A DNA stretch of 64,000 nucleotides, taken from Escherichia coli. GTDB lineage: Bacteria > Pseudomonadota > Gammaproteobacteria > Enterobacterales > Enterobacteriaceae. The translations under genes were made by a program, and so were the position numbers. Location of the stretch: NCBI RefSeq assembly GCF_050920415.1, contig NZ_CP169309.1; one strand, 5' to 3'. The notes below the pieces were generated by a model. That model was not told where the DNA came from. It made no database searches and saw only the letters and a list, made by a program, of their open reading frames with translations. Positions 53,180 to 56,571 of this stretch are shown piece by piece (within the stretch, counting starts at the first letter, position 1; each line of letters begins with the position of its first letter).

Positions 53180-53485
53180 TCAATATACATTTTGCACCTT
53201 CGAGATAGTAATGACTGTTACTGTAACATGAGTTACAAACAGCTTCATACCCAGAGCTACTGATGTATCAACTCGATTCAACAATACCCGATATTTATTC
53301 CATGCCTCCAGCAACGATCTTTCTTCCTCCGTTGCGATTTCCAGATCTACAGCATCCTGCAGTGGCGCAATATACTCACTGAATTCCTGGATGTAGAACT
53401 GTGTGGTGACGGTCTTCCAGCCATTCGGCTCCTGCTGTATCGAAGCATACCAGGCTATTTCAATATCGCTATGCTGCGGCAGCAT
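53180..53485 (-). pseudogene. tail fibre assembly protein remnant (tfaX-like, C-terminal part only)
   Basis: Contains [38 protein letters not shown], near-identical to the C-terminus of the intact Tfa at 55996-56571; N-terminal part replaced by unrelated sequence. Confidence 0.7.
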
Positions 53486-53541
53486 TTAACCCCTTGTAAT
53501 TCATCGCCATAATTGATTTAATTCACAAATAAAACTATAAC

Positions 53542-54210
53542 ATGGTGAAATTAATGAAAAAAAACACAGATGATGGGGCTAAAATTTACACACCACTTAC
53601 CCTAAAGCTTTATGACTGGTGGGTTTTGGGAGTATCAAATCGGCTTGCATGGGGATGTCCTACAAAGGAACACCTTCTTCCACACTTTCTGGAACATTTA
53701 GGTAACAACCATCTGGATATTGGTGTTGGAACTGGGTTTTACCTTACTCACGTACCTGAGAGTAGTCTGATATCTTTAATGGATTTGAACGAAGCTAGCC
53801 TGAACGCGGCATCTACAAGGGCTGGGGAATCAAAAATTAAACATAAAATTAACCATGATGTTTTTGAACCTTATCCCGCGGCGTTACATGGTCAATTTGA
53901 TTCCATTTCCATGTTTTACCTTCTTCACTGCCTGCCTGGAAATATATCTACAAAAAGCTGTGTAATACGCAATGCGGCGCAGGCCTTAACTGACGATGGA
54001 ACTCTATACGGAGCCACAATTCTTGGCGATGGAGTTGTGCACAATAGCTTCGGTCAAAAACTGATGCGCATTTACAATCAGAAAGGCATCTTTTCAAACA
54101 CAAAAGATTCCGAAGAAGGCTTAACACATATACTCTCAGAGCATTTCGAGAATGTTAAAACCAAGGTTCAAGGTACTGTAGTAATGTTTTCCGCTTCAGG
54201 GAAAAAATAG
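53542..54210 (+). CDS. class I SAM-dependent methyltransferase (YbcY-like, apparently intact)
   Basis: 222-aa ORF with SAM-binding motif I LDIGVGTGFYL; start may be the internal MKKNT. Confidence 0.65.
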   Translation: MVKLMKKNTDDGAKIYTPLTLKLYDWWVLGVSNRLAWGCPTKEHLLPHFLEHLGNNHLDIGVGTGFYLTHVPESSLISLMDLNEASLNAASTRAGESKIKHKINHDVFEPYPAALHGQFDSISMFYLLHCLPGNISTKSCVIRNAAQALTDDGTLYGATILGDGVVHNSFGQKLMRIYNQKGIFSNTKDSEEGLTHILSEHFENVKTKVQGTVVMFSASGKK

Positions 54211-54575
54211 CATCCAACCGCAGCACGTTCTTGCATAAGGCGTGTCTGCGGTTTTTCAACTATTCAGATACATCACTCCCATCACATTCATTCCTCCGCA
54301 TCATAGGCATATAGGCTATATCACCTTGATATTTTTCTTCTTCAGATAAAAACTGTTATCTATGTATACTTTTAAACCCAATCCGTGTAGAGTCTCTGCA
54401 TAAGATAGTTTGCAGTTGCCACTTCAGCTTGCGCCATAAACCGCCTGATTTTTGCCGCCACCTGTTAGCATTCCTGTATACCTGAAACGACAATGTTTAT
54501 CTACGAACTTTAAGAACACCCAGGATAAAAATTGTCAACTATATCATATATAACACATTACTAATTCGAGGCTAT

Positions 54576-54689
54576 ATGAACAGCATACTGATAATCACTT
54601 CTCTCCTTATCATATTCAGCATTTTTAGTCATGCCCTAATAAAATTAGGGATTGGCATATCCAATAACCCAGACAAAACCGATGTATAA
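54576..54689 (+). CDS. candidate 37-aa hydrophobic small protein ([37 protein letters not shown])
   Basis: Short ORF below the track cut-off, read directly from the sequence; GAGG 4 nt upstream of the ATG; one predicted transmembrane helix; AT-rich cargo region. Confidence 0.25.
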
Positions 54690-54757
54690 GTCAACATATC
54701 CTGAATCAGACATACAATATCGCAATGAAAATCAATAATATTTTAAGGAATATCTTC

Positions 54758-54991
54758 ATGAAATCAAAAGACACCCTAAAGTGGTTCCCTGCGCAGCTTC
54801 CTGAAGTAAGAATTATCCTAGGGGATGCTGTAGTGGAAGTAGCAAAACAGGGAAGACCTATCAATACCAGAACATTGCTTGATTACATTGAAGGAAACAT
54901 AAAGAAAAAATCATGGCTGGATAACAAAGAATTATTACAAACAGCGATATCAGTTCTTAAAGACAACCAAAATTTAAATGGTAAAATGTAA
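54758..54991 (+). CDS. hypothetical small protein
   Basis: In-frame ATG at 54758 inside the 54725-54991 ORF with aagga Shine-Dalgarno about 8 nt upstream; 77 aa MKSKDTLKWFPAQLPEVRIILGDAVVEV. Confidence 0.4.
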   Translation: MKSKDTLKWFPAQLPEVRIILGDAVVEVAKQGRPINTRTLLDYIEGNIKKKSWLDNKELLQTAISVLKDNQNLNGKM

Positions 54992-55307
54992 TATAATAAA
55001 CTTACTTTTTTATCATTTTTCCACTTTAACAACATTTTGCTCCACTTTTCCACGATCAAACAACTTGAAATCTGGTTAAAATAACACGCAACACTATTCT
55101 TCTTCCTTGAGTCCGCCCGGAACTCGAAAAACAAACCGAGTTAAAGCCATTTTTCACAAAATCGATTTTGGGTCTCACCAAAATTACGGGGTTGCATACG
55201 CATTCGTTTATTTTCGAACGTGTACATACAAATATGCACAAAAATAATCAAAATTATTTTCTGAGATGCATTATGATATGAACACCAATTTCGTATAGAG
55301 TCTCACT

Positions 55308-55898
55308 ATGTCTCGAATTTTTGCTTACTGTCGGATATCAACGCTGGATCAGACCATCGAAAATCAACGCCGGGAAATCGAAAGTGCAGGTTTTAAAATC
55401 AAACCTCAGCAAATAATCGAAGAACACATTAGCGGCTCAGCAGCAACCAGTGAGCGTCCTGGTTTTAACCGGTTGCTTGCTCGCCTGAAATGTGGTGATC
55501 AATTGATTGTGACAAAACTGGATCGCCTTGGTTGTAATGCAATGGATATCAGGAAAACAGTGGAACAACTGACCGAAACAGGTATCAGAGTGCATTGCTT
55601 AGCATTGGGGGGCATTGACCTGACCAGTCCAACAGGAAAAATGATGATGCACGTAATTTCAGCAGTCGCTGAATTTGAACGAGACCTTTTACTTGAACGC
55701 ACTCATTCCGGGATAGTAAGAGCCCGCGGCGCAGGGAAACGTTTTGGTCGACCACCTGTGTTAAATGAAGAACAGAAACAGGTGGTATTCGAACGAATTA
55801 AGTCAGGTGTAAGTATAAGTGCCATTGCCCGGGAATTCAAAACCTCGCGGCAAACCATTTTAAGAGCCAAAGCAAAACTTCAGACACCTGACATATAA
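55308..55898 (+). CDS. serine recombinase (resolvase/invertase family, Pin/Hin-sized)
   Basis: 196-aa [32 protein letters not shown] with catalytic Ser in YCRISTLDQ and C-terminal helix-turn-helix ([18 protein letters not shown]). Confidence 0.8.
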
Positions 55899-55995
55899 AA
55901 AATAATCTCGGTGTGAGATGCTTTACGTCTTCCAAGCCCCCTTCCTTGCCGTAAATGGAAAGATACATCTAATTATAGAATTTATATGTTTTACC

Positions 55996-56571
55996 CTACG
56001 GCAGTGCTGGCCATTCAATATCCTGTGCAGTTGACGTATCAACACGGTTCAGCAACACCCGATACTTTTTCCAGGCTTCCAGCAATGAGGTTTCTTCCTC
56101 CGTTGCGATTTCCAGATCTACAGCATCCTGAAGTGGCGCAATATGCTCACTGGCTACCTGCATCAGGCTGTTTTTTGTTTCTTCCGCCTCTCGGATCCGG
56201 AACAGTTTTTCTGCTTCTGCATCTTTCACCCAGGCTGTGCCGTTCCACTTCTGAAACTCCCCTTCCGGCGATAACCAGGTAACATTTTCCGGTAACGGAC
56301 CGAGTTCAGAAATAAATAACGCGTCCCCTGACGCTACGTCATAAACCGTTTTACCCCGATGGTCTTCAACGAGATGCCACGATGCCTTATCACTGTTGAA
56401 AACAGCCACAAAGCCAGCAGGAATATCTGGTGGTGCAATATCGGTACTGTTTGCTGGCAGACCTGTATGAGGCGGAATATATGCGTCACCTTCACCAATA
56501 AATTCATTAGTTCCGGCCAGCAGATTATAAATTTTTATGGTCCGTGGTTGTTCACTCATTCTGAATGCCAT
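55996..56571 (-). CDS. tfa: phage tail fibre assembly protein (Tfa)
   Basis: 191-aa ORF; C-terminus [36 protein letters not shown] typical of lambdoid Tfa; start overlaps the stf stop. Confidence 0.85.

Follow-up and report, generated by a model that had tools for sequence, protein, structure and literature searches.

What is the role of a serine recombinase gene that lies between two copies of the end of a tail-fibre assembly gene? A small serine recombinase gene stands beside stf-tfa in Mu, P1 and e14. We examined a 64,000-nucleotide stretch of Escherichia coli DNA (contig NZ_CP169309.1; hereafter, the window), in which direct repeats of the tfa 3' end bracket a serine recombinase gene, two small ORFs and an intact SAM-dependent methyltransferase gene. 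This gene content is exactly as given in a preliminary description of the sequence, which had proposed either a cassette captured or exchanged by recombination or a degenerated form of an invertible host-range switch.

Results

The Locus Lies in the Accessory Arm of a DLP12/Turner-Type Prophage

The region is the accessory arm ("b-region") of a DLP12/Turner-type lambdoid prophage at argU, extending from the tail-fibre genes to attR (Table 1). The prophage has the 47-bp attR, the gene order J-lom-stf-tfa and 99.6% identity to phage Turner that are expected of this type. In strain 2013C-3181, the junction of argU and intD in the same prophage matches the attR core at 100%, and the identity to phage Turner begins exactly at this core. 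The integration site is shared with K-12 DLP12, whose annotated end likewise lies between ompT and envY, and ompT is found beside attP in phages Turner, 2G7b and PhiR26_1.

Table 1. Coordinates of the features of the prophage arm in the window.
Feature	Position	Strand	Remarks
attR core	49903..49949		47-bp copy of the tRNA-Arg argU 3' end; right prophage boundary
ompT	50372..51325	+	RefSeq; phage-borne cargo inside the prophage boundary
alpha/beta hydrolase cargo gene	51512..52996	+	RefSeq; phrog_20134; K-12 comparison
tfaX-like fossil ORF	53180..53485	-	RefSeq pseudogene 53180-53392; phrog_2341; PF02413
direct repeat copy A	53261..53392	-	in the tfaX fossil; 86.4% identical to copy B
ybcY-type class I SAM-dependent methyltransferase	53542..54210	+	intact, 222 aa; Pfam Methyltransf_12/23/25/11
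ynaM/ynfT small protein gene	54576..54689	+	RefSeq; NCBIfam NF041477, 63.9 bits (cutoff 35)
ydfK/ynaE cold-shock protein gene	54758..54991	+	RefSeq; phrog_2718 over full length
putative target-site duplication, left	55103..55107		TTCCT; read from sequence; identical to right copy
candidate left terminal IR (weak)	55108..55147	+	25/40 match to transposon IR, expected orientation
decayed res site	55195..55307	+	tnpR-proximal subsite and promoter region best kept
pinR/pinQ-type small serine recombinase	55308..55898	+	196 aa; orphan TnpR with Cys76
right terminal IR	55902..55941	-	GGGGGCTTGGAAGACG...; transposon homology stops at the IR tip
putative target-site duplication, right	55942..55946		TTCCT; read from sequence; also in diverged lineage L016/L020
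intact tfa	55996..56571	-	RefSeq; 191 aa; phrog_105 over full length, E 5e-100
direct repeat copy B	56032..56163	-	in intact tfa
side tail fibre gene stf	56571..59537	-	RefSeq

A close relative of the arm is phage Turner (PP925837), which is 99.6% identical from attP through ompT, the hydrolase gene, tfaX', ybcY, ynfT, ydfK, pin and tfa to the 3' end of stf, and encodes a Pin protein identical to that of the window. The stf gene of Turner is longer than that of the window and diverges beyond 56756. Since the whole cassette is present in Turner, it is carried by an environmental (water) phage isolate. The presence of ompT, ybcY, ydfK and pin inside this phage genome thus indicates that they are mobile phage cargo and not decayed chromosome. 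Among the relatives of Turner (PhiR26_1, 2G7b and ev243), PhiR26_1 lacks the ynfT-ydfK-pin block (54252-56008), and 2G7b retains ompT-hydrolase-tfaX'-ybcY beside a different tail-fibre module.

The right arm of K-12 DLP12 reads tfaD - ybcY' - tfaX - appY - ompT - attR and shows the same direct-repeat layout of tfa, ybcY and tfaX at 97% identity. In contrast to the window, it lacks 54252-56008, its ybcY is a pseudogene (97% identical to the intact gene of the window), its tail genes are deleted, and appY occupies the position of the hydrolase gene. The ynfT-ydfK-pin block is nevertheless present in K-12, in Rac (pinR) and Qin (pinQ), where the order stf 3' end - tfa - pin - ydfK/ynaE - ynaM/ynfT is conserved with 98% identity, ydfK/ynaE itself being 98% identical. 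The Rac and Qin modules abut the prophage end, whereas in the window the module is followed by ybcY, tfaX', the hydrolase gene and ompT before attR is reached. Parts of the window stf are 94-98% identical to K-12 stfR. We found the same 3.8 kb in 310 of the 5426 complete E. coli genomes searched. The locus is therefore a common and already annotated accessory region, and the genes between the repeats already bear names.

These comparisons bear out the idea of a captured or exchanged cassette in a general sense, as the interval is a recombinational mosaic in which the ynfT-ydfK-pin block is present or absent between prophages. Three pieces would have been gained separately between the tfa copies, namely the ybcY methyltransferase gene, the ynfT-ydfK cold-shock pair and a Tn3-family remnant. 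The methyltransferase matches phrog_2132 over its full length, and an NCBIfam search gave no specific family for it. An imperfect hairpin followed by a T-run was read by eye 3' of ybcY, at about 54218-54256.

One of the Two tfa Copies Is a 5'-Truncated Fossil

The repeat of about 110 bp and 85-90% identity in the same orientation, noticed in the preliminary description, proved to be real. BLAST aligned the two copies with 86.4% identity over 132 nt (E 6e-43), and a repeat scan extended them to 53247-53392 and 56018-56163 with 84% identity over 146 nt. At the offset of 2771 the segments first described are 87% identical, although their register had been given with an error of 1 nt. Both copies encode the Tfa C-terminus as stated; the C-terminal peptide of the remnant reads EYIAPLQ... 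and that of the intact gene EHIAPLQ..., and the two tfa sequences share the minus strand. The statement that the upstream copy belongs to the intact tfa holds in the direction of transcription only; in plus-strand coordinates, the low-coordinate copy is the remnant. As an observation apart, repeat copy B matches the Rfam model RF02111 (IS009) at 226.7 bits, and copy A matches it below the gathering score.

The gene at 55996-56571 is a full-length tfa. The short ORF is annotated by RefSeq as a pseudogene "missing N-terminus", in agreement with the truncation noted earlier. Its Pfam Caudo_TAP match (PF02413) covers residues 31-77, corresponding to model positions 75-121 of 131, and only this C-terminal part (about 53255-53395) is Tfa-like. 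The length of the ORF differs between records: K-12 has 61 aa, and 2G7b has a pair of short CDS that overlap. These data show that the remnant is a 5'-truncated tfa fossil, the counterpart of tfaX in K-12. The short protein may retain some function, since TfaX-like ORFs form a PHROG family of their own. The fossil may be the leftover of an earlier tail-fibre module whose replacement involved illegitimate recombination within the old tfa. A second tfa 3' fossil, of 98 bp, lies in phage 2G7b beside its different fibre module, which shows that module swaps leave such scars. The present data do not allow the order and mechanism of these module replacements to be worked out.

A Probable Tn3-Family Relic Lies Between ydfK and tfa

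The segment around the recombinase gene appears to be a Tn3-family remnant of about 0.83 kb without a transposase, consisting of a probable left IR, a decayed res, tnpR ("pinR/pinQ"), a right IR and a TTCCT duplication. Positions 55228-55937 are 82% identical to 5919-6630 of locus L006, and this nucleotide identity spans the proximal res and tnpR up to the tip of a 40-bp IR. Terminal IRs of about 38-40 bp beginning with GGGG and a 5-bp target-site duplication were taken as the marks of a Tn3-family element, and TTCCT was found on both sides. The right IR is clear. At the left end, the local alignment of the candidate IR scored only about 2.7 sd above shuffles, and a search of the whole window for a second transposon IR returned only this weak candidate at 55108. 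The diverged pin lineage is uninformative on the left IR, because its divergent block starts only at about 55290. Within res, the distal crossover subsite is mostly lost and about 80-110 bp of the proximal part is recognisable; the putative subsites were assigned from the repeated TGTCCGAAA/TTTCGGACA motifs in L006. No ORF for a TnpA transposase (PF01526) was found in 53000-56600, and the segment is therefore a relic, not a transposon.

The likely source family is represented by an intact 3815-bp Tn3-family element of enterobacterial plasmids, found in 56 E. coli genomes, with a 994-aa DDE_Tnp_Tn3 TnpA, a divergent 196-aa TnpR and a 40-bp IR, GGGGTCCGCTTGGAAAACGG... RefSeq annotation names it only as "Tn3 family transposase". 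The closest relatives of the window recombinase that carry Arg at the position of Cys76 divergently adjoin such a 994-aa transposase in 8 of 10 places, and L009 holds an intact element with a TAATA duplication. The relic resembles this transposon in its TnpR (83% protein and 82% DNA identity), in homology that reaches into the proximal res and up to the tip of the IR, and in the 5-bp duplication. It differs in having no transposase, a decayed crossover subsite, and Cys in place of a catalytic Arg; its IR, with 3 bp deleted, retains about 80% conservation. TIMEs (Tn3-derived non-autonomous elements; PMC4133298) also lack a transposase but have Tn3-family IRs and a 5-bp duplication. TIMEs are short and without tnpR, whereas the relic has tnpR and part of res, a doubtful left IR and, at most, putative mobility. 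An empty site (ydfK flank, TTCCT, tfa flank) occurred in 0 of 5426 genomes. A search for a lambdoid phage with the intact transposon beside tfa gave no such phage; the Tn3-family elements met in P1-like and other phages were unrelated ones. For these reasons, we infer the insertion history rather than demonstrate it.

The Recombinase Is Related to Tn3-Family Resolvases and Carries Cys76

The window recombinase is 98-99% identical to K-12 PinR and PinQ, which also have Cys76. Although PHROGs labels it "DNA invertase" (phrog_125), the protein is 83% identical to the Tn3-family TnpR and only 36% identical to Gin, outside the Din clade. A previous study gives 38% identity between PinQ/PinR-type recombinases and e14 Pin (PMC12529663). 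Judging from these identities, the pinR/pinQ recombinase is by descent a Tn3-family resolvase and not a Din-family invertase.

We compared the protein with the catalytic set Y6, R8, S10, D36, R68 and R71 (Tn3 numbering). It has Y7, R9, S11 and R73; Glu stands for D36, a feature shared with the Arg-bearing TnpR relatives. In the alignment, gamma-delta R71 and Gin R69 face Cys76, which corresponds to R71 of Tn3 resolvase, where the substitutions R71A and R71K abolish recombination (PMC2794168). The transposon relatives have Arg at this position, and the Cys is common to the window protein, PinR, PinQ and the diverged lineage. Loss of catalytic residues, which had been named beforehand among the findings that would refute the preliminary interpretation, is seen in part: the R71 equivalent is replaced and the four other residues above are present. 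The dN/dS of pin against the diverged Cys-bearing lineage was 0.39 (p = 9e-4 against neutrality), showing that purifying selection still acts on the gene. A non-local role is therefore the most likely reason for its survival.

Discussion

The best explanation of the locus, to which we assign a probability of about 80%, is a mosaic prophage arm that contains a duplicated tfa 3' end and a Tn3-family relic, and in which no segment inverts or excises locally. Local inversion and excision are unlikely in the interval, because there are no partner sites nearby, the recombinase's own crossover subsite appears to have decayed, and Cys stands for the R71 equivalent.

Two other accounts of the architecture were weighed against this. 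The direct repeats might be working ones, such that RecA-dependent recombination between the tfa 3' ends excises or captures the recombinase-methyltransferase cassette as a unit. A match of 132 nt at 86% could support rare homologous recombination, and cassette content does vary among phages. However, the predicted deletion product, in which tfa would be joined to what lies downstream of tfaX, was found in 0 of 5426 genomes (the junction query was nowhere covered to 80% or more), and the polymorphism observed is bounded by 54251 and 56009, which both lie outside the repeats, and takes out ynfT-ydfK-pin only, leaving ybcY in place. The absence of the product and the position of the boundaries suggest that cassette loss is not driven by the repeats, and we consider such recombination very unlikely. 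A longer deletion-product query matched the pin-less arrangement. The other account, a Gin/Cin/Pin type of host-range switch, live or recently degenerated, with tfaX as the alternative tfa, draws on the likeness to Mu G/Gin, P1 C/Cin and e14 P/Pin, that is, a small serine recombinase beside stf/tfa-type genes and a second tfa-derived sequence nearby, and on the PHROGs label. In contrast to those systems, the tfa copies here are direct whereas a switch needs convergent sets, no crossover sites are present, and no isomers are known. Neither a second stf C-terminus nor an alternative set of fibre C-terminus and tfa in opposite orientation was found in 53000-56000. A scan of 49-60 kb for inverted repeats gave only short chance-level pairs, bracketing nothing relevant. 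The inverted gix/hix-like crossover sites that had been suggested for a search did not rise above chance: the gix core AAACCNNGGTTT (AAACC-NN-GGTTT) matched 3 times in 64 kb, where 2.5 matches are expected, the one local match, at 54158-54169, had no partner, and no e14 pix site was found in the window within 3 mismatches. The descent of the recombinase and its Cys76 also count against a switch, and a survey across genomes detected inversions in e14 only and none in Rac or Qin (PMC12529663). An invertible host-range switch, live or degenerate, is largely refuted already, and we give it hardly any credence.

A further possibility concerns the function of the recombinase only and is compatible with the mosaic architecture: the protein may be a competent invertase acting elsewhere, on the e14 P segment in trans and in anti-phage defence, which would make the cassette a defence module and not a relic. 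Kirigo et al. (2025; PMC12529663) reported that the near-identical PinQ/PinR promote P-segment inversion in trans. Overproduced PinQ raised inversion from about 30% to about 88% and blocked T2 adsorption, and deletion of pinQ sensitised cells to T2, PinR being stated to be equivalent. This reported activity argues against catalytic death, and the near-identity of the window protein to PinQ and PinR, the purifying selection on pin and its retention in a phage isolated from water accord with it. On the other side, Cys occupies the position at which Tn3 resolvase mutants lose recombination (PMC2794168), the ancestral resolvase sites (TGTCCGAAA-type) are unlike pix sites, and the window holds no e14-type site. 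In addition, deletion of pinE locks the P segment in one orientation (PMC12529663), and PinQ therefore appears to be insufficient without PinE. We take a competent trans-acting invertase seriously, at somewhat short of even odds.

Within the mosaic-arm explanation that we prefer, the non-local role of the recombinase might be that of a repressor bound to the relic res/promoter, or might lie in the effect in trans that has been reported for the e14 P segment. More tentatively, and as less likely than not, the PinR/PinQ "invertases" of lambdoid phages as a group may be exapted Tn3-family resolvases that have lost their transposase and crossover site, in which the Cys has become fixed, and which purifying selection nevertheless maintains beside tfa, also in an environmental phage isolate. 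They would then serve a non-canonical role, for example in res/promoter regulation or in modulating a different invertase such as e14 Pin.

Taken by itself, the locus is of little importance, being a common annotated prophage arm whose repeat is probably a scar of tail-fibre module exchange. What is new here is the apparent Tn3-family descent of pinR/pinQ, the putative remnants of IR, res and target-site duplication, and the Cys76 at the catalytic-arginine position. The resolvase descent and the loss of R71 bear directly on the 2025 claim that PinQ and PinR are active anti-phage invertases, and an exaptation of PinR/PinQ, if true, would change the understanding of the reported PinQ defence against T2.

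The Direct Repeat of tfa 3' Ends Lies in a Prophage Arm

In this stretch of E. coli chromosome, the 3' end of argU recurs as a 47-bp sequence between envY and ompT. This sequence is the attR of a prophage whose integrase adjoins argU in a collinear complete genome, and the cryptic prophage DLP12 ends at the same place in the K-12 annotation. With attR at this position, ompT through tfa all lie inside phage, a stretch that occupies the position of the b region of lambda. The segment 49903-56756 is 99.6% identical to the deposited phage Turner, the match beginning exactly at the Turner attP, and the two share one and the same recombinase protein sequence. 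The 3.8-kb arrangement was found, at a coverage of at least 80%, in 310 of the 5426 complete E. coli genomes. We also observed that ompT and the hydrolase gene stand beside attP in the deposited phages Turner, 2G7b and PhiR26_1, and this carriage next to attP indicates that OmpT is mobile phage cargo.

Features of the prophage arm (coordinates on the + strand of the window)
Feature	Coordinates	Strand	Remarks
attR (argU copy)	49903-49949		47 bp
ompT and alpha/beta hydrolase	49903-53000		hydrolase 494 aa; inside prophage boundary
Terminator-like hairpin	53017-53052		strong, 14-bp stem; just 3' of hydrolase gene, before tfaX
tfaX ORF	53180-53485	-	101 aa; holds low-coordinate repeat copy
RF02111 'IS009' match	53259-53462	-	107.7 bits, E 9e-25 (gathering score 117)
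Class I SAM methyltransferase (ybcY)			222 aa; between repeat copies
gix/hix-like core AAACCAAGGTTC	54158-54169		in methyltransferase gene
ynaM/ynfT and ydfK			between repeat copies
Serine recombinase (pin)	55308-55898	+	196 aa; between repeat copies
Intact tfa	55996-56571	-	191 aa; holds high-coordinate repeat copy
RF02111 'IS009' match	56030-56228	-	226.7 bits (gathering score 117)
stf tandem repeats	57775-58170		three of 132 nt; 100%, 77% and 63% identity to reference copy

The preliminary description had placed a methyltransferase, two small ORFs and a serine recombinase between direct repeats that both encode the Tfa C-terminus, and all of this was borne out. The repeat scan paired 53247-53392 with 56018-56163 (84% over 146 nt), and BLAST paired 53261-53392 with 56032-56163 (86.4% over 132 nt, E 6e-43), the conserved tail-fibre assembly C-terminus being encoded on the minus strand each time. 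In the tfaX ORF, the Pfam Caudo_TAP match covers residues 31-77 only (model positions 75-121 of 131), and in the RefSeq annotation 53180-53392 is a pseudogene of tfa without the N-terminus. The length of this ORF varies by record, from 61 aa in K-12 to 101 aa in the window, and 2G7b has a pair of short, overlapping CDS instead. Since both RF02111 matches overlap tfa coding sequence, this family may largely mirror conserved tfa 3' ends. The tandem repeats of stf fall in an Ala/Ser/Thr-rich part of the fibre protein, and stf length is unequal among the window, Turner and strain 2013C-3181.

The Repeat as a Probable Scar of Module Exchange

The preliminary description took the direct-repeat arrangement to suggest a cassette captured or exchanged by recombination, or a degenerated switch. 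None of the 5426 genomes contained a place covering at least 80% of the junction that recombination between the copies would create, and the observed presence/absence boundaries, 54251 and 56009, fall outside both copies; thus there is no sign of the repeats mobilising the cassette. A Din-type switch requires alternative fibre ends that converge, together with crossover sites in inverted orientation. The tfa copies are direct, no second stf end was found, and the inverted-repeat scan returned short, chance-level pairs only; an inversion switch is not supported. The gix core occurred at chance frequency in the window (3 matches, 2.5 expected); the single local core has no partner site, consistent with chance, and the e14 pix site was not found.

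Comparison with relatives points instead to mosaic exchange. K-12 DLP12, with the order tfaD-ybcY (pseudogene)-tfaX-appY-ompT, is 97% identical to the window over 53256-54251 and 56009-56425, but lacks 54252-56008 and carries appY at the hydrolase position; phage PhiR26_1 likewise lacks pin. K-12 Rac and Qin, in contrast, share 54202/54214-56767 at 98%, comprising the stf 3' end, tfa, pin, ydfK/ynaE and ynaM/ynfT, beyond which they run into their own attachment sites. We read tfaX as what was left behind when a tail-fibre module was replaced long ago, in an inferred order of events, with the direct repeat as its by-product. Phage 2G7b retains ompT-hydrolase-tfaX'-ybcY, and ybcY is followed by an extra 98-bp tfa 3' fragment (L018 7281-7378) and then an unrelated tail-fibre module. 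With tfaX', this fragment makes two nested tfa scars, and it shows a scar of this kind arising a second time. At the same locus in strain KSC64, the pin and tfa block is diverged by 8-18% per 100 nt from window 55290-56500, and the flanks are 98-99% identical on both sides. The left boundary of this block lies inside the res of the transposon relic described below, which indicates that pin and tfa are swapped as one block.

The Recombinase Descends from a Tn3-Family Resolvase

With K-12 PinR and PinQ the recombinase shares 98-99% identity, with Gin only 36%. The genes of its nearest relatives outside the prophage clade (77-83% identical) are divergently oriented to a neighbouring gene for a 994-aa Tn3-family transposase, approximately 160 bp apart, in 8 of 10 places examined, which identifies them as TnpR resolvases. 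Window 55228-55937 is 82% identical in DNA to the transposon, the homology spanning the tnpR-proximal res and tnpR up to the tip of the 40-bp terminal inverted repeat, where it stops. The intact element, of 3815 bp, has perfect inverted repeats and a 5-bp duplication at the comparison locus L009, and is complete in 56 E. coli genomes. The relic has no transposase. TTCCT stands on both of its sides (55103-55107 and 55942-55946), and a candidate left inverted repeat at 55108-55147 is correctly oriented, although no more than 25 of its 40 positions match, a score some 2.7 sd above shuffles. The putative res subsite nearest tnpR appears well kept and the distal one largely lost. No empty insertion site was found in the 5426 E. 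coli genomes and no phage with an intact transposon at this position, suggesting that the insertion is old. Three proteins 91-92% identical to Pin (P0003, P0005 and P0006) have an N-terminal half of the transposon TnpR type, with Arg, and a C-terminal half of the Pin type; these could be plasmid tnpR and prophage pin recombinants, or assembly chimeras on contigs of ~1-3.6 kb.

Loss of the Catalytic Arginine

When the recombinase was aligned to the Gin and gamma-delta resolvase structures, the key catalytic residues were present except one, Cys76 standing where Gin has R69 and the resolvase has R71. Every transposon relative examined carries Arg at this position; PinR, PinQ and the window protein share Cys with a prophage lineage that has diverged to 84% identity and also adjoins tfa in the same locus. 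The R71A and R71K mutants of Tn3 resolvase no longer recombine, and their cleavage is lowered ~1000-fold (PMC2794168). The two lineages with Cys differ by 36 non-synonymous and 26 synonymous changes, for a dN/dS of 0.39 (p = 9e-4 against neutrality), so the pin gene is still under constraint.

Kirigo et al. (NAR 2025, PMC12529663) report that PinQ, equivalently PinR, increases e14 P-segment inversion in trans and thereby blocks T2 adsorption, and that inversions across E. coli genomes are found only in e14, not in Rac or Qin. The P segment is locked in their pinE and pinE pinQ mutants, which implies that inversion by chromosomal PinQ/PinR requires PinE, in agreement with the Cys76 observation. 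Cys76 and the resolvase ancestry fit poorly with PinQ/PinR being the direct catalysts, without disproving it. That paper never names Tn3 and discusses neither the arginine position nor Cys76, and our literature text search found no paper tying prophage pinR/pinQ to tnpR.

Taken together, the locus is real but ordinary, a known and widespread accessory arm of lambdoid (pro)phages, and its direct repeat is probably a module-exchange scar. What is new is only that pinR/pinQ-type genes can be reread as Tn3-family resolvases that are orphaned and lack the arginine.
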